Virus record (IMG/VR): IMGVR_UViG_2802429234_000006 | Strand: one strand, 5' to 3' | Length of the DNA stretch: 15,576 bases | From: a virus | Taxonomy: Duplodnaviria; Heunggongvirae; Uroviricota; Caudoviricetes | Part shown: positions 1,372 to 12,751 of the stretch, one piece after another | How the letters are laid out: each line of letters opens with the position of its first letter | Numbering within the stretch: position 1 is the first letter of the stretch | Position numbers and translations under genes: made by a program | Notes under the pieces: model-generated | Seen by the model: only the letters and a program-made list of their open reading frames with translations | The model's database searches: none | Told to the model about the DNA's origin: nothing

Positions 1372-1598
1372 TTCTTTTGCAGGCTTTTTTCCTTCATGCA
1401 AAACTTCCATTTCATTGCCAGATAGCAACACCAAGGGAAATTGGAAACAATACCCACCTCGACATCCCTTACTTTTTGGAAGTGTTCATAAAAATTTCTC
1501 AAAAAAGAAACATCACTAAAATATGACAATCTTTTCTTAATCGCATCAACTTTTATAGAATATGACATTGGTGTCATTGTTTTTATTGCCACGCTCAT
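1368..1598 (-). CDS. Small hypothetical protein (76 aa), first gene of a putative two-gene operon
   Basis: ATG at 1598 preceded by AAAAGG about 5 nt upstream. Its stop overlaps the ATG of the large downstream ORF. AT-rich promoter-like DNA lies upstream (1599-1680). Confidence 0.4.
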   Translation of the reverse strand: MSVAIKTMTPMSYSIKVDAIKKRLSYFSDVSFLRNFYEHFQKVRDVEVGIVSNFPWCCYLAMKWKFCMKEKSLQKK

Positions 1599-1974
1599 AA
1601 AAAACCTTTTATGATAAACATAGAGAAATATTTTATTTAAAAATCATCAAATACACGTTAATAAATATACATTTTTTAATTTTGCGTGCAACCCTATCCC
1701 CAATCAATACAAAATATTGTGCACACAAAATTGAAGAAGCCTATAACTATAGGTGCCTACTGACACCTATCAAGAAACTTGTTCACCCCCGACACAATTT
1801 AATTTGGCGTAGCTCACAATGTTCTCCTCAGCACACCTACCCCCACTTTATAGGACAGTTTTCATGCAGTACAGGCATAAACAAAAGCTCATCAGTTCTG
1901 GTGGTTCCTCACCACGAACATGCAGATAATACCTCAAAACATCATGTAACAATGTTGGCATTACACCACCAGCC

Positions 1975-1999
1975 ACAAAAAAGCCCTACCCTTAGGCTT
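1975..1999 (-). terminator. Putative intrinsic terminator (short stem AAGCC/GGCTT followed by a U-run on the minus-strand transcript)
   Basis: Inverted repeat at about 1981-1985 / 1995-1999 followed on the minus strand by TTTTTT. Lies about 40 nt downstream of the small ORF ending at 2039. Confidence 0.3.
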
Positions 2000-2038
2000 A
2001 ATGTTTGGCTTGGCTGTTGGCTTACCGTAACGCTCCGC

Positions 2039-2218
2039 TCACCGTCGCGGCCTGTCCGGTTTCTTCCACTGATACGGCCTCACATCATCCTGCTGGTGGC
2101 GTTCCTGTTGCAGCACAACGGAAACAGGCGCTGAACACCTGTTAATTTTGCTTGCTGGTTGTTTGATTTCGGCAATGCTGCGGATCATCTCCAGCAAATC
2201 GGCTTCGGTGATGGTCAT
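2039..2218 (-). CDS. Small hypothetical protein (59 aa; below the size cutoff of the ORF track)
   Basis: ATG at 2216-2218 with AAGGTG 7 nt upstream on the minus strand; hand translation MTITEADLLEMIRSIAEIKQPASKINR... runs to a TGA at 2039-2041. Sits immediately downstream of the repeat array. Confidence 0.3.
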   Translation of the reverse strand: MTITEADLLEMIRSIAEIKQPASKINRCSAPVSVVLQQERHQQDDVRPYQWKKPDRPRR

Positions 2219-2225
2219 GATTTAC

Positions 2226-2510
2226 ACCTTAGGAAATCTTAGGGGCTGGTTGACACTTTCCGGCTTGAGACCTTAACAAATCTTAACATCGCAGGTTGAC
2301 ACACTTGACACTTTTTCGCGAAAAACCTTATCAAACCTTAGCATTTCTAAGCATGGCAACTTGACACTTTTCGCGATTTTTTCGGCTTTTTGACGTGGTA
2401 AATCTGGCGCAAAGTCAGTAATGGCGAGGCTTCCAGCGAGGTTGACACTTTTTCGCGTTCAGAGTGTAAAGTGTCAACCTGGCAAGCTGCTCAACTTGAC
2501 ACTTTTTGAT
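2226..2510. repeat. Array of short direct repeats: at least 7 copies of TTGACAC (three as GTTGACACTTTTTCGCG), one inverted copy (GTGTCAACC), plus interleaved CCTTAnnAAAnCTTA repeats
   Basis: TTGACAC at about 2250, 2297, 2305, 2361, 2442 and 2495, with variant TTGACGT at 2389 and inverted copy at 2471-2479. CCTTA-type repeats at about 2226, 2271 and 2326. Non-coding interval between the HTH gene (stop 2512) and the small ORF (start 2218). Confidence 0.6.
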
Positions 2511-2511
2511 G

Positions 2512-3039
2512 TCATTGATGGTCTGATTTTTCCCATTCAGCCAGGGCGTTTAGCCCGGCTTCACTCCATGATTCCAGTTCATCGGGATAATCACCTGCAA
2601 CATAGCAGAGTTCGCAACGCAGCATACGAATTGCCAGCCTGGCATTACCCCGCAAATTGTATTGTTCAAAGTAATGCTGCCCGTCGCAATCCTCAAGGCA
2701 GATAGCACCATCATCAAGAAATTGCACTTCCCAGCCTAATTCCCCGGCTGCATCCAGCACACGCTGCTGTATGCCCTCGTCCGTTGCTGGCGCAGGAATT
2801 TTACCGTCTCTGGCCTTAACTGCTTTCCAGAACTCGCCCCACGTCATTTCCAGCGTTCTTTCTGGCCACATTTCAGAAACTGCGTCTTTTCCCTGTGCTG
2901 GTGGGCTGTTCCGCTGCTCTGTCGCTTCCACATCGATTTTTTTACCGGACATGATCACTTCGCCTTTCTCGATCCAGTCGTAAACTGTCTGGCGGCTTAC
3001 GCCTTTGTATTTGGCGTATTCGGCTTTACTCATCAACAT
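2512..3039 (-). CDS. Helix-turn-helix DNA-binding protein (175 aa); N-terminus resembles the winged-HTH of excisionase / AlpA / lambda Nu1 (TerS N-terminal) type proteins
   Basis: ATG at 3039 with GAGGTG 6 nt upstream (the track start at 3048 is a GTG). N-terminal MSKAEYAKYKGVSRQTVYDWIEKGEV fits the pattern of Nu1-like NKKQLADIFGASIRTIQNWQEQG. Acidic C-terminal half. Family assignment is from recollection, not a search. Confidence 0.65.
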   Translation of the reverse strand: MLMSKAEYAKYKGVSRQTVYDWIEKGEVIMSGKKIDVEATEQRNSPPAQGKDAVSEMWPERTLEMTWGEFWKAVKARDGKIPAPATDEGIQQRVLDAAGELGWEVQFLDDGAICLEDCDGQHYFEQYNLRGNARLAIRMLRCELCYVAGDYPDELESWSEAGLNALAEWEKSDHQ

Positions 3040-3138
3040 GTAGCTCACCTCATGCGTATACGATAAAAAATAATTTCATGCGGAAAGGGAATGCGTTGTG
3101 GGTATGGAGGAAAGGGGCAATAACCGCCCCTTACTGAT

Positions 3139-3411
3139 TCAGTTGCGCCAGGATGGCTGGCTAAGCGTGGTTTTCATTACATCATTGACGACCTGTTTTA
3201 CGATTTCTGTGTTGGCAGTCGTGCTTTCAACATCAACAAAGCCATAATCGCCAATTTCCACCGTCAGGGATTCCAGTTTCTTCCCTAGAGCATCAGGCAA
3301 CTCTCCACTGAACCGGTGCTGAAGATTTTCCACCAGCAACGCCCTGAATGCCTCGCTGTTCTCTTTTTTCTGCCATAGCTGGCGTTTATCCACTCTGATA
3401 TTTAATTTCAC
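3139..3411 (-). CDS. Hypothetical protein (90 aa), second gene of a small coupled operon
   Basis: Its ATG at 3411 overlaps the stop of the upstream 55-aa ORF (ATGA). A weak hairpin (GGGGC...GCCCC, about 3107-3125) lies downstream. Confidence 0.5.
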   Translation of the reverse strand: MKLNIRVDKRQLWQKKENSEAFRALLVENLQHRFSGELPDALGKKLESLTVEIGDYGFVDVESTTANTEIVKQVVNDVMKTTLSQPSWRN

Positions 3412-3575
3412 AGTCTCACCTCTTTAAGTGCCTTATCCATCAGTTGCCGGGCGATAACATGAATCGACGGTGCCACACCAAGCACAGATTTCTGACGCTC
3501 TTCGTCCTGGATGCGTTGCAGGGCTTCGATCTGGCTCCGGGAAAGTAAAACTGGCTTTACTCCGTGATTTTTCAT
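3408..3575 (-). CDS. Small protein (55 aa), possible DNA-binding regulator
   Basis: ATG at 3575 with AGGGAG 6-7 nt upstream; the track ORF upstream of this ATG is Cys/Tyr-rich and probably not coding. Palindromic operator-like sites lie 20-75 bp upstream. Confidence 0.5.
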   Translation of the reverse strand: MKNHGVKPVLLSRSQIEALQRIQDEERQKSVLGVAPSIHVIARQLMDKALKEVRL

Positions 3576-3594
3576 GATGCTCCCTTCTGAATGA

Positions 3595-3650
3595 CAATAA
3601 TTGCAATTATTGCACAAAATGAAATGATACCAACGATAATTGCAATAAAT
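3595..3650. promoter_or_regulatory. Two operator-like palindromes sharing an ATTGCAAT core: perfect 18-bp CAATAATTGCAATTATTG (3595-3612) and imperfect ATAATTGCAATAAAT (3636-3650)
   Basis: Perfect dyad symmetry read directly from the sequence, positioned in the presumed promoter of the 3575->3139 operon, centres about 39 bp apart. Confidence 0.4.
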
Positions 3651-3853
3651 GAAACAAAAAGCATCAATAAACCAACCTTCAGCACTAAATGCTCTGATTT
3701 TTCTGCAAAAGTATGGCAGATGTTGCTGCATGCAAACATAAAGGAAATAGCAGAAGAAACAGCGGGGAGTGAAAAGGGGAAGTTTTTATAAATACACGAT
3801 TGTCGCCCCACTGCAGGTTAACAGCCACAAGCTCCATGATAATAACTTGTTAA

Positions 3854-4177
3854 TTATTTCATCAGATTTTTCATTACTTGCGCGATTGAGTACACAAGCA
3901 AAAACTCGGCAGCCGCAAGAGTATAAAAAACATAAATTCGCTTAGCCCACCGACGATGAAAGAACTCCTCAGCATGGCCGGATGTTCGAGATACAAGCCA
4001 TGCACCTACTGCACACAGAGCAGGTGAAATGAGCACAGTTATAAACCAGATTGTGATGCCCATCCCATGCCTACTGATAATAGCCATTGGTATTGCAAAA
4101 ATGAATGTTAGAGCAGCATTAGCTAATAGAATATCTTTTAAAGTATTTTCAATTAGTTTTTCTAGATTATCTTTCAT
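3854..4177 (-). CDS. Small integral membrane protein (107 aa, 2-3 predicted transmembrane helices)
   Basis: ATG at 4177 with a G-rich SD (GGGGGG) 5 nt upstream. Hydrophobic stretches FIFAIPMAIISRHGMGITIWFITVLISPALCAVGAWLV and VFYTLAAAEFLLVYSI. AT-rich. Confidence 0.55.
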   Translation of the reverse strand: MKDNLEKLIENTLKDILLANAALTFIFAIPMAIISRHGMGITIWFITVLISPALCAVGAWLVSRTSGHAEEFFHRRWAKRIYVFYTLAAAEFLLVYSIAQVMKNLMK

Positions 4178-4206
4178 CTAATCCCCCCGTTGAACATTAA
4201 TATATA

Positions 4207-4229
4207 AAAGCCCCTTACTAAGGGGCTTT
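4207..4229 (-). terminator. Intrinsic terminator: 10-bp perfect stem (AAAGCCCCTT / AAGGGGCTTT) with a 3-nt loop, followed by a U-rich tract on the minus-strand transcript
   Basis: Directly downstream of the lipoprotein gene stop (4241); the minus-strand RNA continues as UUAUAUAUU. Confidence 0.55.
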
Positions 4230-4240
4230 GCGCGGATTGT

Positions 4241-5383
4241 TTAAAGGGAACTTTTTTTCGCCCCATCAATTTCTGCCTGACAAATTTCGTCATTTGTAAA
4301 TGAGTACTGCAGATAGACATATCCCTGAGTGGAATTGTTCGCTCTGGCCTCAATAGAGATAGTATCAATATTGTTTTTTAATGGTATTTCTTTTGTTCCC
4401 TTCCATGTGGCAGATAAGAAGCGTTCTTTTTTGTTTAGCCCCCTCATCCAGTCCTGAGGCTCTTTCCAAATTGAACCAGCCAGCAAAAAGTCTGTAGTAT
4501 CAGCCTTTCCATACAGAGAACTTAAAGAATTTCTCAATTCTTCAAACTTGGATTTAAGAGCCAATCCATAGCTATCAGTATCAATATTTTTTCCTAAAGC
4601 CCGTATTTGACATAAACCAGCTTTCGGGGAGATCAACAAACCATACATTTCAAAATCTGCGTTTTGCTTCGGTAATTTATCAGAAGTATACAGATTTACA
4701 CTGTCTGGTAGTGGCTTGAGCTTAGCACCGATCATATCTTCGATGTTTTTCTGTGTAAGACCGGCTTCTAAGCCGAACGGACCATCCGCTGGCGGGAGTA
4801 AAGGAAGTTGCTCTTGGGAATTTTTGGCTGTTACTTCCGTTTCAGTACTGTTTTTTGCGTCATTATCTTGTACTGATGCCAGCTTAACTTCAGCGAGGCC
4901 ATACTTGGCTGTGAGGTACTTTTGCTGCAACATTGCCATGGTCTGCTCTTCAGTGGCAACAGTAGATAATTTTAGTACCTTTATCAGACCACCGCTATAC
5001 TGACGAGCATCAGCTTTGGCTTCGTTGATTTTTGCATCTAAGCTGTCAATTTCAGTTTTAATTGAAGCCGCAAGCTCAGGATCAGGTTTAACTCCAGATA
5101 CAACAACATCAATTTTAGCACCTGATTCAATAGCATTAATACGCTGTTCCAAAATCGCTTTATTAGTTCCTAATATTTCCAGTCTTGCTGTTGTCAGATT
5201 TTTTATCAACCCACCAGAAAACTGCTGGTCAACTTCCTTAGCTGCTGATATTTCACCTTCCGTTTGCGACAGTTCAACTTTAAGAGCCGCTACTTCCTGT
5301 TTCTGTTCTGGAGTTAACTCTTCTGGCCCACATCCGGTTAACATTACTATACCGACTAATGTTGCAATTAAAGTTTTATTCAT
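4241..5383 (-). CDS. Lipoprotein (380 aa) with an internal tandem repeat and a coiled-coil-like N-terminal half
   Basis: Signal peptide with lipobox MNKTLIATLVGIVMLTGC. Internal repeat DQQFSGGLIKNL / ARQYSGGLIKVL. Long ORF followed by a strong terminator. Confidence 0.7.
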   Translation of the reverse strand: MNKTLIATLVGIVMLTGCGPEELTPEQKQEVAALKVELSQTEGEISAAKEVDQQFSGGLIKNLTTARLEILGTNKAILEQRINAIESGAKIDVVVSGVKPDPELAASIKTEIDSLDAKINEAKADARQYSGGLIKVLKLSTVATEEQTMAMLQQKYLTAKYGLAEVKLASVQDNDAKNSTETEVTAKNSQEQLPLLPPADGPFGLEAGLTQKNIEDMIGAKLKPLPDSVNLYTSDKLPKQNADFEMYGLLISPKAGLCQIRALGKNIDTDSYGLALKSKFEELRNSLSSLYGKADTTDFLLAGSIWKEPQDWMRGLNKKERFLSATWKGTKEIPLKNNIDTISIEARANNSTQGYVYLQYSFTNDEICQAEIDGAKKSSL

Positions 5384-5420
5384 ATCCCTATTCCAAATGA
5401 AAATATTCAGATTAATCTTA

Positions 5421-5804
5421 TCAGGAACCCAGATGCAATTGAATATTCATCTGCTCAGCAACGTAGTAGATTTCTTCAGAAAGCATCAACAAAAAACCAA
5501 GAGAATCCCATCCTCTGTTACTGACTACAATTGTTCTTTTTTGGTAATTCCTGAATGCCTTACCATTGGGCTGATGTAATCCCATCCCGGCATGTGCCCG
5601 GCTGATGGTTTCGCGCATCTCCCCGAAATTATCCTGCCTTGCCGGTAGGCGTGCTGCCTTGCGTATACATTCCGCGCGACGTTTTGCCGCCTGTTCCCGT
5701 GCTTTGTCATCATTCGCCAGCATGATGACCTCAGCCCATCGCTCCGCCGCTCTCCGGTACAGGCCACGCGCTTCCAGTGCTTCCGCTTTACTGTCGCGTA
5801 TCAT
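5421..5804 (-). CDS. PerC-family-like transcriptional regulator (127 aa)
   Basis: ATG at 5804 with AAGGAGG 10 nt upstream and an ATGA overlap with the preceding ORF. N-terminal KAEALEARGLYRRAAERWAEV resembles the conserved N-terminal motif of PerC/Pch-type activators as I recall it; not confirmed by search. Confidence 0.5.
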   Translation of the reverse strand: MIRDSKAEALEARGLYRRAAERWAEVIMLANDDKAREQAAKRRAECIRKAARLPARQDNFGEMRETISRAHAGMGLHQPNGKAFRNYQKRTIVVSNRGWDSLGFLLMLSEEIYYVAEQMNIQLHLGS

Positions 5805-6049
5805 GCGCTTTTTCCCTCCTTCATGGCCTTACGCTGGCGCTTGTGCTTCTCATTCAGCGCCATCAGCCGCGTTTCTGCGTCCTGTTGTTCCTGTGGTGTC
5901 ACCTCGCCGCATGGCTGGCCTTTCAGGTCGTAACGCACTCCACCAGCAACCAGAGCGCGGTAATAGCGCGGAGACTGCGCATAAGATGCCAGCGTCGCAC
6001 GTAATGCCCTTAGCCCGAATGCCAGCCCCCTGACGGCGATATCCTGCAT
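5801..6049 (-). CDS. Hypothetical small protein (about 82 aa from the ATG at 6049; the track extends to a GTG at 6160)
   Basis: Stop overlaps the PerC-like start (ATGA). GC-rich region with overlapping alternative frames, so the start is uncertain. Confidence 0.35.
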   Translation of the reverse strand: MQDIAVRGLAFGLRALRATLASYAQSPRYYRALVAGGVRYDLKGQPCGEVTPQEQQDAETRLMALNEKHKRQRKAMKEGKSA

Positions 6050-6117
6050 CAGGTCGTCGAATATCCCCCACCTTAAGCGGCTTCGGTGCTTCCCGGCTGA
6101 ATAATTCAGGCCACAAC

Positions 6118-6342
6118 TCAGTGGCGGTTTTTGCGCTGCCGTTTGGTCATATGCCGCCACGGTGTCGCCCCTGTGGGCTTCTGCTGCACTTTCTGGTTAC
6201 CGGGCATCACTTTATGCGCCGATGTGGTTTTATCCTGCTCCTGTGCCGACTGCGTCGTTTTCTGCGTCGTGCCGAAAATGCCTTTTGGCTTTCTGTTAAT
6301 GGTCAGCTTTGTCATGCTCTTCCCCATCATTGTTGCCGTCAT
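6118..6342 (-). CDS. Hypothetical small basic protein (74 aa)
   Basis: Hydrophilic, Lys/Arg/Thr/Gln-rich ORF just downstream of the putative origin. No clear SD at the first ATG; an internal ATG has GGGAAGAG upstream. Competing plus-strand frames are Cys-rich and look non-coding. Confidence 0.25.
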   Translation of the reverse strand: MTATMMGKSMTKLTINRKPKGIFGTTQKTTQSAQEQDKTTSAHKVMPGNQKVQQKPTGATPWRHMTKRQRKNRH

Positions 6343-6496
6343 ATCGGCGTGTAATCATCAAAACAGTCTGATTGTCAAAATTACATATCTGCTTTTATGC
6401 CTTTTTCTGGTCGGATGGCTGACGGTAGCCACCCGTAATACAAAATTTGAGCAATCACTTTTCTGTACTCTATAAGGCGTAAAAAACCATTTTTAC

Positions 6497-6769
6497 CGGG
6501 ATATCGGGATACAAACAAAAAACAACTTATTTTTCATTATGTTATGTGGTTTTTCGTATCCCGCCATATCCCGGTAAGTTTTTTTTTGCTTATGCATCAA
6601 TAACATATTTCGGGATACGTTCCGGGATACAGTGATTTCGTTTATTTTTAAACCATTCGTAAACCAAAATACTGGGATACGGCGGGATATGGCGGGATAC
6701 GATAGCAACACATAAGCAATTGATATTTATGTAATATATTTTTCATATCCCGATATCCCGCATATCCCG
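6497..6769. repeat. Putative replication origin: 12 copies of the 8-mer (C/T)GGGATA(C/T) in direct and inverted blocks, interleaved with AT-rich spacers
   Basis: Copies at 6497, 6505, 6611, 6623, 6673, 6683 and 6693 (forward) and 6556, 6566, 6745, 6753 and 6762 (inverted). Spacers contain long A/T runs. Lies 30-300 bp downstream of the replication protein gene stop (6802). Confidence 0.7.
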
Positions 6770-6801
6770 CGATTTTTGACCCTCTGCGAGCGTAGGCGGT
6801 T

Positions 6802-8934
6802 TTATTCGTCTTCAGCCAGGTCAATCAGCACGATAAATCGCTGCTGTGTTCCGTTAATCTTCACCGTTTTCGATGTCCAGCGACCGGGTTCTGCACAAAC
6901 CAGCACTCCGGCTTCCTCCAGCGCCTGGCACCCAAAGTTTCTGGATATGCCGCATAAAATTTCTCCATCAAACACTGACGGAATAATGTGATATTCGGGT
7001 TTTCCATCTTCCCGCTTACCGCTGACAAGATACCCTGCAAGGTTATTTATACGGGATGCATAGTGGTTATCCATATCTCCATTGCTTTTCCCGTAGGTAT
7101 AAGGCTGAAAACGGCTCAGGGCATGGCGCTGAATAAAATCACGGGCGCGGCTGATGACCTGGTATTTTTCCCGGTTTTCCAGCCCGAAATCCTGTAACCA
7201 GTCATCAAAAGCCCGTTGCGTTGCTGCCCGACATTCTTTTGCTGTCCAGCCAGTAATTGCGGTGGCAAGTTCTCCGGCCGCATCCAGCATGGCAAAGCGT
7301 GAAGCCACACGTCTGACCTGTGACGATGCATTTTCAGGCAGATTTCCCAGCCAGGTATTTTCTTTATCGGAAGTGGTGTTAATAGCCAGTTCCTTATGAG
7401 CGGATAACCAGCGCACCCACTCACGCCCCGCAGCTCCACAATAATTTGATGAAAGTCGCTTTATTGCTCTGGCATGTTGATCACCATCGTCATACCCGTT
7501 AAAAACCGTTGTATCGGTAAAGGGAACGCTTAGCAGCCGCACCAGTTGCCCGGCTTTTGGGGTGATCCCCCCTTTTAACAGGAAGGTCTCAAAATCTTCT
7601 TCCCCTGTGCTTAGTGCCGCTATTTTCCAGCGCATTACTGCACGATTGCCGCCATCTTTTCGTCCCTGAATTCTCCCCACACCGTTAAACAGGCTGTAGG
7701 CGGATTGCGCGATGTCATTAATCCTTCCTCCCTGACCAATTTCATCAATGGGGATAAAGCCATCATTACGTGCGGCAGCTTCCACCGTCAGTCCGTGCCG
7801 GGTGGCATCCCACGAAAGTTTGAGCATTTCAGGATCGCCATAAAGACTGGTGGCAGCTTCCACTGTCGTGGTTTTCCCTGCTGACGACTGCGCGAAAAGG
7901 TGGATACCAAAACAACTTCCGCCCACAAGAGAATTAAGGGGTGCTGCCAGTCCGACCAGTACCCCAAGCATCATTGAGTGATTACCTCGCATCAGGGAGG
8001 CGACATTATTCCTCCATTCCTGTACCGTCCCCCTGACGATATAGCCTTTGATGGCTGCAGATCCGCCACAGAATGCCACTGGACGATCCGGTACACCAAT
8101 CACCTCACCATCTGGCATAACATAGGCTCCACAATGCCATCCGGCTGTTGATGTGACCTCCCACACAGTACGATCTCCCTGACGTTGCAGGTATTCCGCC
8201 AGTTTATTCAGTAAATGGGCGCTGGTGGTGATTGCAACACCCCGTCCACGTAACCTCGCCCATCCTGCTGGCATACCGATTTCATTGCGCGGCATCGCTT
8301 CGTAAATAATTTTCTGTGTTCCTTCCGGGATCATTTCAATTATCAGATACGCTTCCCGACCATCATTACCAATACCCGCTGTGCGCATCCTGTCACTCAA
8401 CCAGGTTTCCTTATGATTCAGCTCCTCTGCTCTGGTATTGGGTATTGGCTCGACATACCAGAGCGCACCATCTTTTTCGGTGATATGCGGTTTCATGGGA
8501 TCTGTTCTTCCGGGCAATCCACCCGCTCTCCTGACTTCCTCCGTCATGGTTTCCCCGCGCTCTGCCTGTTCGCGGATCCGTTGCAGGTAGTCGCGCCAGT
8601 TCTCAGGCTCCCGGTCGGGGATACCTTTGTATAATTTCGCCTCCTGTACGCCAGCCAGCGCCAGTTTTTCGGCGACAGCGTTAATCAGGATTGGCTCAAT
8701 CTCCCCCGCGATATAAACACGCGCAAAGCGGCGCTCATCGTCGACAATGCGGATATTCGCAAGCTCTGCAAGTTGCTTTGGCCCCAGGTAAACAGGCGGC
8801 ACGCTATCGCCATGTTTTCGTCCTTCGCTTTCAATCCAGTGTTGAGCATGGGCGTAAGCGTCCGTCCCGGCAAAAATGATTACCTCAGTGAATTTATCCT
8901 TCGGCTGATATTTTAAATTCGGTGCGTTTTTCAC
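6802..8934 (-). CDS. Replication protein, primase-helicase-like (710 aa): P-loop NTPase core with a possible Toprim-like N-terminus
   Basis: Walker A-like AQSSAGKTT and Walker B-like FIPIDEIG read from the translation. GTG start at 8934 with GGGAGG 6-7 nt upstream, overlapping the stop of the preceding ORF (GTGA). An iteron array lies immediately downstream. Resemblance to DUF927 / phage-plasmid primase families is from recollection. Confidence 0.8.
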   Translation of the reverse strand: MKNAPNLKYQPKDKFTEVIIFAGTDAYAHAQHWIESEGRKHGDSVPPVYLGPKQLAELANIRIVDDERRFARVYIAGEIEPILINAVAEKLALAGVQEAKLYKGIPDREPENWRDYLQRIREQAERGETMTEEVRRAGGLPGRTDPMKPHITEKDGALWYVEPIPNTRAEELNHKETWLSDRMRTAGIGNDGREAYLIIEMIPEGTQKIIYEAMPRNEIGMPAGWARLRGRGVAITTSAHLLNKLAEYLQRQGDRTVWEVTSTAGWHCGAYVMPDGEVIGVPDRPVAFCGGSAAIKGYIVRGTVQEWRNNVASLMRGNHSMMLGVLVGLAAPLNSLVGGSCFGIHLFAQSSAGKTTTVEAATSLYGDPEMLKLSWDATRHGLTVEAAARNDGFIPIDEIGQGGRINDIAQSAYSLFNGVGRIQGRKDGGNRAVMRWKIAALSTGEEDFETFLLKGGITPKAGQLVRLLSVPFTDTTVFNGYDDGDQHARAIKRLSSNYCGAAGREWVRWLSAHKELAINTTSDKENTWLGNLPENASSQVRRVASRFAMLDAAGELATAITGWTAKECRAATQRAFDDWLQDFGLENREKYQVISRARDFIQRHALSRFQPYTYGKSNGDMDNHYASRINNLAGYLVSGKREDGKPEYHIIPSVFDGEILCGISRNFGCQALEEAGVLVCAEPGRWTSKTVKINGTQQRFIVLIDLAEDE

Positions 8935-9221
8935 TTCTTACCTCCCGCAACCAACATTGCCCGGATTTTTTTAATATTCGTGGCTGCACGTCTCGCCACC
9001 GCCTGTTGTTTGTTTTCCACCAGAATAAAATCACGCTCAAACTGACGGCGCGGCATTACGCAGTCATATTCGTAAGCCTCACGGCGGTAGGTGATATTGC
9101 CTGGCGTAACGTGACGAATAACCACTCGTCCACCACGTCTGGTGTCGCGGTAAATATCTCCGTGTCTGATTTCAGGCCGAGAGAGACCGCTGGCAGTAAA
9201 GCCAGAATTTTTCTTTTTCAT
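8931..9221 (-). CDS. Hypothetical basic protein (96 aa), translationally coupled to the replication protein
   Basis: ATG at 9221 with AGGA about 10 nt upstream; stop overlaps the replication gene start by 4 nt. Confidence 0.5.
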   Translation of the reverse strand: MKKKNSGFTASGLSRPEIRHGDIYRDTRRGGRVVIRHVTPGNITYRREAYEYDCVMPRRQFERDFILVENKQQAVARRAATNIKKIRAMLVAGGKK

Positions 9222-9225
9222 GGTT

Positions 9226-9426
9226 TTATTTTCCTGTCAGCAGTTCCGGTTTTATTCCTGCACGAATACAGAGTTCAGAAAAGCCTTCTACCGTACTTAC
9301 AATTTCATTATTTCGCAGCCGGCATTGTGATTTCACGTTCCCTTTATCCAGGTAAACCAGTACGCGTCCGGTGAAATCCTCTGGCACATTCAGGGTAATT
9401 GTCATTGTTGCTGGCTTATTACCCAT
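9226..9426 (-). CDS. Small protein (66 aa) carrying one copy of a DFTGxxLVxxxxGxV domain
   Basis: ATG at 9426 with AGGGGGTG upstream; overlaps the stop of the preceding ORF by 8 nt. Shares the motif with both halves of the 121-aa neighbour. Confidence 0.5.
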   Translation of the reverse strand: MGNKPATMTITLNVPEDFTGRVLVYLDKGNVKSQCRLRNNEIVSTVEGFSELCIRAGIKPELLTGK

Positions 9427-12623: not shown

Positions 12624-12751
12624 TCTGTGCTACCTCGCACCCTCTGTAAAAGTGGCTGTGCCAGCCCGCAGAGGTGTACGGGTTTTCAGGAGCGACCCTA
12701 GACACAGCCTTTTCTTAATCGCTCAAAGTCTACTACTGTATACTCAACCAG

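Follow-up and report, generated by a model that had tools for sequence, protein, structure and literature searches.

A TTGACAC repeat array beside a terminase-type winged-helix gene in an enterobacterial phage satellite: a possible packaging recognition site

Organisation of the island and of the repeat array

The 15,576-nucleotide stretch analysed here (IMG/VR virus record IMGVR_UViG_2802429234_000006, Caudoviricetes; called the window at its full length) is an E. coli phage satellite of the phage-inducible chromosomal island (PICI) type, integrated at tRNA-Thr(CGT) beside proA, and the subject of this analysis is an array of short TTGACAC repeats together with the adjoining gene for a 175-amino-acid (aa) protein, the proposed reader of the array. 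All island genes are located on the minus strand and follow the order integrase, int-alpA RNA, AlpA, AntA-type protein, DUF4222, DUF927 primase-helicase, and CGGGATAY iterons, then ProQ/FinO-like and PerC-like genes, variable genes, a 55-aa gene, a 90-aa gene, and the 175-aa gene, and finally the array, a 59-aa open reading frame (ORF; orf59), a terminator-like hairpin, and AT-rich cargo. Neither terL nor a ParA/ParB-like gene was found among the island proteins by Pfam and PHROG annotation. Islands of this type are termed class C, and the sister satellites described below class A (L133) and class B.

The array (2221–2511, minus strand), proposed as a cosB/pac-like recognition site, fills the non-coding gap between the stop codon of the 175-aa gene (2512–2514, minus strand) and the ATG of orf59 (2218). 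Exact TTGACAC was found seven times in the window, always inside 2250–2502 (plus-strand starts at 2250, 2296, 2305, 2361, 2442, and 2496; a single minus-strand copy at 2471–2477), compared to a mean of 1.98 per whole window in shuffled sequence. One-mismatch copies within the array are TTTACAC at 2221 (plus), TTGAGAC at 2265 (plus), and TTTACAC at 2464 (minus), of which TTTACAC is a genuine variant also used in the arrays of related islands. A preceding sequence-only reading had counted at least seven direct copies and one inverted copy; this is slightly high for exact copies (six direct, one inverted) and is reached when one-mismatch variants are included. Its description of a non-coding interval filled by TTGACAC interleaved with a second repeat was confirmed, with CCTTANNAAANCTTA occurring at 2227, 2271, and 2326 and nowhere else in the window (0.06 expected), as was its statement that the element carries two distinct repeat-defined sites, the other being the CGGGATAY iterons at 6496–6772, which adjoin the primase gene and are unrelated to TTGACAC.

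The conserved unit exceeds the heptamer. Its core, TTGACACTTT, corresponds to AAAGTGTCAA on the coding strand, and the extended unit TTGACACTTTTTCGCG is exact at 2305 and 2442 and has three mismatches at 2496 (0.23 expected). Copies are spaced by about 55 bp (2250, 2305, 2361, then 2442 and 2496). Starting from the 175-aa gene, the first element, R1 (TTGACACTTT, AAAGTGTCAA on the coding strand; 2496–2505, plus), lies 7 nt past the stop codon, and a location 7–20 nt past the stop is kept across genera. R2 (2468–2477, TTGACACTTT on the minus strand) is the sole inverted copy and runs into the TTTACAC variant at 2464–2470, together forming TTGACACTTTACAC. Between R1 and R2 lies an 8-bp unit, CAGCTTGC (2482–2489, minus), as a single copy. 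In other E. coli strains (loci L025–L032 and L323) it is present in two to seven tandem copies, and the R1–R2 distance moves in 8-bp steps; going by the sequences, this copy-number change looks like slipped-strand variation within a putative protein-binding site. R3 (TTGACACTTTTTCGCG; 2442–2457, plus) is followed by a conserved central non-repeat block (2395–2441) with the core CCAGTAATGGCG (CGCCATTACTGG on the coding strand), which is kept in Escherichia, Klebsiella/Raoultella, Pantoea, and L060 arrays and could be a candidate host-factor or cleavage site. Beyond it are R4 (TTGACACTTT; 2361–2370, plus), the adjacent pair R5/R6 (TTGACACACTTGACACTTT; 2296–2314, plus), and R7 (TTGACACTTT; 2250–2259, plus).

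The second motif class (2227–2350) comprises the three CCTTANNAAANCTTA copies and a palindrome, CTTAGCATTTCTAAG, at 2336–2350. On the coding strand, it reads CTAAG-N5-CTAAGG and is located about 9 nt past a GTGTCAA copy, and CTAAGAAATGCTAAGG-type units are kept in class C arrays of several genera. Matches to the integration host factor (IHF) consensus are common in the window (33 with one mismatch, 21 expected), and the array holds a single one (2329–2341). No Rfam family was found for the array as an RNA element, and a structured RNA was rejected, as the fold z-score of −2.1 is accounted for by the inverted repeats. Tandem repeat finder reported nothing on the array.

The 175-aa protein

The gene of the proposed reader is located at 2512–3039 (minus strand). 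In the AlphaFold model (predicted local distance difference test, pLDDT, of 88), the protein consists of a winged helix (residues 1–43), a disordered linker, and an alpha/beta C-terminal domain of four strands plus helices (residues ~61–170). The N-terminal fold of the model is a winged helix of the Xis/TerS/Rpp type, and this winged helix-turn-helix (wHTH) is predicted to be structurally like the DNA-binding domain of the lambda small terminase (TerS). Rpp (redirecting phage packaging) proteins, described with the cos site for E. coli PICIs, e.g., EcCICFT073 (PMC6739421, PMC9026076), bind the TerS of the helper, block the packaging of phage DNA, and promote that of the island. Searches against PHROGs returned phrog_57 (small terminase) with an E-value of 3e-6 over residues 2–43, followed by excisionase and MerR families, while Pfam yielded only a sub-threshold HTH_17 match and no named family. 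A phmmer search against all PDB chains, including RppC (6HN7_A), gave no match at E ≤ 10, and tblastn of the protein against phages gave none either.

Homologues form 101 clusters, restricted to Enterobacterales and all labelled “hypothetical”; one Pantoea homologue carries the UniRef name “Repressor.” Residues 1–42 are nearly invariant across genera and the remainder diverges. For the C-terminal domain, only 20 related clusters were found among 1.84 billion representatives, and the fold search returned no informative match. Rather than being a terminase subunit, the 175-aa protein joins a DNA-binding cassette of terminase origin to an effector domain of another kind.

Co-inheritance of array and gene

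About 90 related loci were taken from GTDB genomes and IMG/VR. The ends of IMG/VR records are gene boundaries set by the provirus call and are thus uninformative on the termini of packaged DNA. Across these loci, AAAGTGTCAA (≤ 1 mismatch) occurs four to six times in the 400 nt past the stop codon compared to zero to three times in the other 10–16 kb, and this clustering after the gene was observed in about 75 of the 90 loci, from Escherichia, Klebsiella/Raoultella, Rouxiella, Buttiauxella, Pantoea, and Serratia. The order within the array is conserved, i.e., R1, inverted R2, R3, the central block around CGCCATTACTGG, and further copies each with a CTAAG-N5-CTAAGG unit, and the layout stays while the other spacer sequence diverges. 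Among 35 unique E. coli arrays, identity was 97% in repeat columns and 88.5% in other columns. The array is very probably the cognate binding site of the neighbouring 175-aa protein.

The array region is present in 166–170 of 5,426 complete E. coli genomes (~3%), always on chromosomes and with four copies at most, and RefSeq annotation of E. coli genomes never marks it. Strains with the island include E. coli EC23-1020, APEC IMT5155, and ABU 83972. In one Klebsiella subgroup (L274, 5695–6144), a DUF5681 protein with a GNPGGRPK motif is encoded directly after the array.

Sister satellites and phage cos regions

IMG/VR was scanned for AAAGTGTCAA-N15-45-TTGACACTTT, which recovered a second group of satellites, in which a denser TTGACAC/TTTACAC array is located directly upstream of a 186–209-aa gene with a homologous N-terminus. 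Homology extends to the islands themselves: between classes B and C, the primase is 47% and the small upstream gene 61% identical, and the module occupies the matching place in both, after the small gene and before the cargo. The class A protein of L133 is a full-length phrog_57 small terminase (E-value 2.7e-23). Its identity is about 40% to the TerS proteins annotated as Nu1-type in Serratia phage BZS1 and Citrobacter phage phiNP, and 43% over 40 aa to the 175-aa protein (BLASTP). Class B proteins, a broad family, share only their first 43–80 residues with terminases and only residues 1–43 with the window protein (hhalign probability 97.5%). What the sequences show are the repeats, their inheritance together with the 175-aa gene, the homology between its DNA-binding domain and that of a true small terminase, and, in sister satellites, the same repeats at the cosB position. 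Physical binding, a packaging role in class C, and contact with a helper terminase are what we infer.

The genome ends of BZS1 were experimentally mapped and carry a 12-nt 5′ overhang, GCATTGCGCGCC (PMC7556043). In BZS1, phiNP, and three E. coli prophages (L168–L170), a cosQ-like GGGTCCTTCC is followed by cosN GGGCATTGCGCGCCGCG, the segment CTAGCTAT..TTTTGAA.TT, three to five GGTAACA repeats, and the terS ATG; the cosN shared by the phages is GCATTGCGCGCC, accompanied by the cosQ-like GGGTCCTTCC and the CTAGCTAT..TTTTGAA segment. In class A and B satellites, the cosQ-like, cosN, and CTAGCTAT segments are retained, TTGACAC/TTTACAC stands in place of GGTAACA, and the arrays extend directly between the phage-type cosQ/cosN and the start of the gene, which puts the TTGACAC repeats of these satellites at the position of cosB. 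The recognition helix co-varies with the repeat, being SRQ(T/A)xY(D/T)W in all TTGACAC satellites of the three classes and SRKTVTxW in all GGTAACA phages. The 14-mer TTGACACTTTACAC is common to the R2 region and the cosN-proximal cluster of class B satellites; a scan with it gave mostly chance matches, but yielded L307, a class B locus that differs in its cosN (GGGCTGGGCGACGCCCCG) while its flanks and array are the same.

Sister satellite loci with this relation to BZS1/phiNP-type phages are L128, L133, L135, L152, L158, L163, and L307. In an E. coli 20KM2222 prophage (L169, 1530–1735), the cosB-like region between cosN and terS is expanded to about 200 bp and contains five direct GGTAACA repeats, two inverted TGTTACC repeats, and two copies of GTTACGTTTT.

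Candidate cut sites and helper phages

An 8-nt match to GGCGAGGC at 2423, considered as a P2-type cos, is a chance match, and for the central block as a phage cos site, a scan of IMG/VR with its core found it only inside these arrays, chance matches aside. A blastn search of the array, and of a Klebsiella array, against 50,697 phage records returned nothing relevant.

A baseplate-hub gene is carried by Klebsiella class C islands; it shares 62% identity with its counterpart in Klebsiella phage Chronis, and vB_YenM phages of Yersinia gave additional matches. Chronis encodes a phrog_370 TerS and a TerL/DUF1073-portal module, its genome record carries no annotated cohesive ends, and it is probably a headful (pac) phage; a headful helper would account for a recognition site without cosN. 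The Chronis-type packaging module was found in 135 E. coli genomes. Candidate helpers in E. coli are Chronis-like prophages and phiNP/BZS1-like prophages, e.g., those of strains EC12 and C8. Within the phrog_370 small-terminase gene of L255 (3460–4200, Chronis gp73), four to six copies of GGTACGCAA form a candidate pac site inside terS. Tail parts are encoded by several related satellites (L075, 6206–7932; L274, 3890–9724; L135, 3505–6519; L152, 1491–3293; L158, 12100–12450), namely a baseplate hub, spike, VgrG-like fusion, baseplate wedge, tail fibre with assembly protein, and tape-measure/transglycosylase protein, which suggests that these satellites modify the contractile tail of their helper.

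Proposed function and alternatives

Packaging recognition or redirection at a cosB/pac-like site, served by the adjacent protein, is our preferred reading, to which we give an even chance, because the DNA-binding domain is of terminase ancestry and identical repeats occupy the cosB position in homologous islands. The array would consist of about ten short R elements (core AAAGTGTCAA), the equivalent of lambda cosB, read by the winged helix of the 175-aa protein. In the proposed sequence of events, a helper phage would induce the island, which would be excised and replicated from the separate CGGGATAY origin; the 175-aa protein, made at the end of the late operon, would coat the array with its copies ~55 bp apart and one pair inverted; and its C-terminal domain would recruit or retarget the helper terminase, such that island DNA is packaged in place of phage DNA. 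With no cosN in the window, we presume that the DNA is cut by a headful (pac-type) mechanism or at an unrecognised site. A more specific version, which we hold only tentatively and consider rather doubtful, is that class C represents cosN-independent packaging redirection, in which an adaptor domain joined to the terminase-derived DNA-binding cassette brings the terminase of a headful (pac) helper to a multi-site array specific to the satellite. Candidate helpers would be myoviruses of the Chronis/vB_YenM type, and the “DNA-binding domain plus R-array” would be a portable cassette joined to three effector domains (true TerS, class B, and class C) and to at least two cosN sequences.

A packaging site or packaging-redirection module had already been one hypothesis of the sequence-only reading. 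Its premise of a TerS/Nu1-like N-terminus is borne out by the phrog_57 match and the Xis/TerS/Rpp-type winged helix, and the comparison of homologous elements it had suggested, i.e., whether the array travels with the HTH gene, gave a positive answer in about 75 of the 90 loci. The hypothesis itself gained from the TerS-like domain, the repeats at the cosB position in sister satellites, and the joint inheritance, and lost from the missing cosN and the missing terminase C-terminus. Several short repeats that apparently match the specificity of an adjacent TerS-type wHTH, a feature of cosB, are present in the window.

Several observations weigh against a packaging role. For lambda cosN (GGGCGGCGACCT), the window contains only a two-mismatch chance match inside the primase gene, and for the 19-nt cos of P2/P4 nothing better than five mismatches; neither the window nor any class C locus contains the cosQ-cosN region of phiNP/BZS1. 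The fixed position of cosB between cosN and terS was not found in the window, whereas the same repeats take it in classes A and B, and the array here is downstream of its gene and mostly in the opposite orientation, compared to upstream in the terminase-linked classes. Searching 1450–9400 by blastn against the 50,697 phage records revealed no phage-like DNA, and no helper phage was identified for the island. The oligomerisation/TerL-binding region found at the C-terminus of terminases is absent from the 175-aa protein, with matches ending at residue ~43 and a C-terminal domain without informative relatives, and the winged-helix fold is also found in excisionases and MerR-type regulators, so that the fold alone is not evidence of packaging.

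The main rival, to which we assign a low probability, is that the array is a transcriptional operator and the 175-aa protein a repressor or activator with a recruited terminase-derived DNA-binding domain, where multi-site binding would control or insulate transcription that runs from the late operon into orf59 and the variable cargo, or antisense transcription that enters the gene of the protein itself. The fold is common to regulators of the MerR/Xis/AlpA type, the UniRef name “Repressor” of the Pantoea homologue would fit, the array is located at the boundary of core and cargo, upstream of orf59 and defence-type cargo (Abi_2 in L075), and the window is without a cut site. However, the downstream gene is not conserved; many islands have a full array without orf59 and with unrelated cargo, which makes an operator array for this small ORF, as the sequence-only reading had considered, unlikely. 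Repeats of the sister classes are at the canonical cosB position rather than at a promoter, and ten sites over 285 bp, with the R1–R2 spacing varying by 8-bp steps, are unlike a simple operator. A promoter scan found no promoter-like −35/−10 pair in the array on either strand, in agreement with the earlier remark that TTGACA lacks matching −10 elements, and no −10 element 16–18 bp past any TTGACA. This equally bears on the idea that the array is a sigma-70 promoter cluster, with TTGACA as −35, or a set of excisionase (recombination directionality factor) sites, which we regard as the most improbable of the explanations: conservation reaches the full TTGACACTTT and includes inverted copies, the island already has AlpA, and L001, a complete island, has its distal att core TGGTGCGATAATAGGA and integrase arm sites GTACCCCCAA about 3 kb beyond the array.

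Improbable, too, is interference or competition, in which the protein would either bind the TTGACAC-type cosB arrays of class A/B satellites as its rivals or tie up a factor of the helper, and the array of the island itself would serve as a decoy, titration, or autoregulatory site. Its predicted binding specificity is common to class A/B satellites, which have cosN, while class C does not, and Rpp shows that proteins with a terminase-like DNA-binding domain can chiefly block packaging (PMC6739421); what this leaves unexplained is the conservation across genera of the full array (repeats, central block, and CTAAG units) beside the gene. There is very little room for a role in replication or partition, whether as a second element comparable to P4 crr, as an iteron origin, or as a centromere. 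The repeats of P4 crr are the same as those of P4 ori (record annotation), whereas CGGGATAY and TTGACAC are unrelated here, which also made the second origin of the sequence-only reading unlikely; no TTGACAC copy was found outside the array, the island is without a ParA/ParB-like gene, and the DNA-binding domain is terminase-related and not Rep-related.

Other features of the island

The 59-aa orf59 (2039–2218, minus) belongs to phrog_7271 and is a frequent but dispensable partner of the module. Its homologues follow the HTH gene in class B (e.g., L307) and class C islands, are often missing, and are absent from many loci with a full array. The family (also L274, 6414–6602, and L307, 10211–10399) has a conserved C-terminal W(K/R)KP..RR and no assigned function. 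A terminator-like hairpin (1981–1999, minus) closes the module ahead of the AT-rich cargo, which in the window is a gene of at least 477 aa (1–1434, minus; ~30% GC) that runs off the window and matches phrog_14259 and, weakly, TPD. Relatives carry other cargo at the same spot, e.g., Abi_2 in L075, and the spot beside the module is probably a defence hotspot.

The module is headed in class B and C islands by a conserved 55-aa gene (3408–3575, minus; 61% identity to its L135 homologue), whose protein has no Pfam or PHROG match and is, at a guess, ribbon-helix-helix-like. The 107-aa ORF predicted at 3408–3731 (minus) is probably over-called, as conservation is limited to its last 55 aa (3408–3575). 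A 380-aa protein (4241–5383, minus) with a lipoprotein-type signal (LTGC) at its start and a 107-aa membrane-like protein (3854–4177) are both found only in a subset of islands. The int-alpA RNA (Rfam RF02996, 49.8 bits) is located at 12640–12708 (minus), between the integrase and a 251-aa gene. In L001 (11306–11408 and 26417–26568), the att core TGGTGC(C)GATAATAGGA is the 3′ end of tRNA-Thr, and a 23-nt arm-type sequence, ATACCCCCAAAAGTACCCCCAAT, is present at both ends of the island.

Significance and comparison with known systems

Preferential packaging makes phage satellites efficient carriers of virulence and defence genes. To our knowledge, it has been worked out in Gram-negative bacteria only for Rpp/lambda-cos and capsid-forming PICIs. 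The module considered here is unannotated; about 3% of the complete E. coli genomes carry it, it is found in many genera of Enterobacterales, and all its proteins are labelled “hypothetical.” Widespread as the family and its TTGACAC arrays are, no description of the protein family, of the arrays, or of BZS1/phiNP-type satellites and their satellite-helper pairs was found in the searchable literature, and a literature search for the motif strings returned unrelated primers only. The three classes form a natural experiment, leading from a true small terminase to a domain-swapped protein beside a phage cosN and on to a domain-swapped protein without cosN, which can show how packaging specificity is rewired via a short recognition helix and repeat swaps. 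If cosN-independent packaging by class C were true, Gram-negative PICIs would have a third route to preferential packaging, one not described so far. Should the packaging role be confirmed, the 285-bp fragment and its small gene would offer a compact means of building transducing particles, and the finding would help to predict which phages mobilise which islands.

Like P4, the island is a satellite that encodes a primase-helicase and has two cis sites defined by repeats, separated by about 4 kb. However, P4 crr and ori share repeats bound by the alpha protein, whereas the two repeat sets here are unrelated. The cosB/gpNu1 system of lambda (R3-I1-R2-R1) and the BZS1/phiNP terminases resemble the module in direct and inverted short repeats with a putative winged-helix reader, and the DNA-binding domain is homologous to that of BZS1/phiNP TerS via the class A satellite TerS. 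In contrast to these systems, the array in the window is without a flanking cosN and is 3′ of its gene, the 175-aa protein has no oligomerisation/TerL-binding part, and the island has no terL. Staphylococcus aureus pathogenicity islands (SaPIs) of the pac type, with SaPI TerS and pac, likewise combine a satellite specificity factor and a recognition site beside its gene with the helper TerL and headful packaging, a model that would fit a site without cosN; SaPI TerS is, however, a complete small terminase homologue, whereas the protein here shares the DNA-binding domain only.

The closest parallels were drawn with Rpp and EcCICFT073. The present island and EcCICFT073 are both Gram-negative PICIs with int, alpA, and a primase, and with the module at the distal end; both encode a small protein with a TerS-like N-terminal winged helix and a non-terminase C-terminus, as far as the model predicts; both have what appears to be a satellite-specific recognition sequence distinct from the helper cosB; and in the sister class B, a helper-type cosQ/cosN is followed by a satellite-specific cosB, as in Rpp-type islands. 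RppA is 44% identical to RppC, and RppA/RppB are 44–83% identical to RppC or each other, whereas the 175-aa protein has no sequence homology to RppC at E ≤ 10. Its proposed DNA-contact residues are RQTVYDW instead of R21/T22/R25/K29/R30, and its C-terminal domain is predicted to be alpha/beta instead of an alpha4–alpha6 coiled-coil dimer. A single R3-like site is proposed for the cosB of Rpp-type PICIs, compared to about ten sites over 285 bp here, and a helper-type cosQ/cosN beside cosB was not found in the window. The module is thus Rpp-like in its logic and is not a member of the Rpp family.

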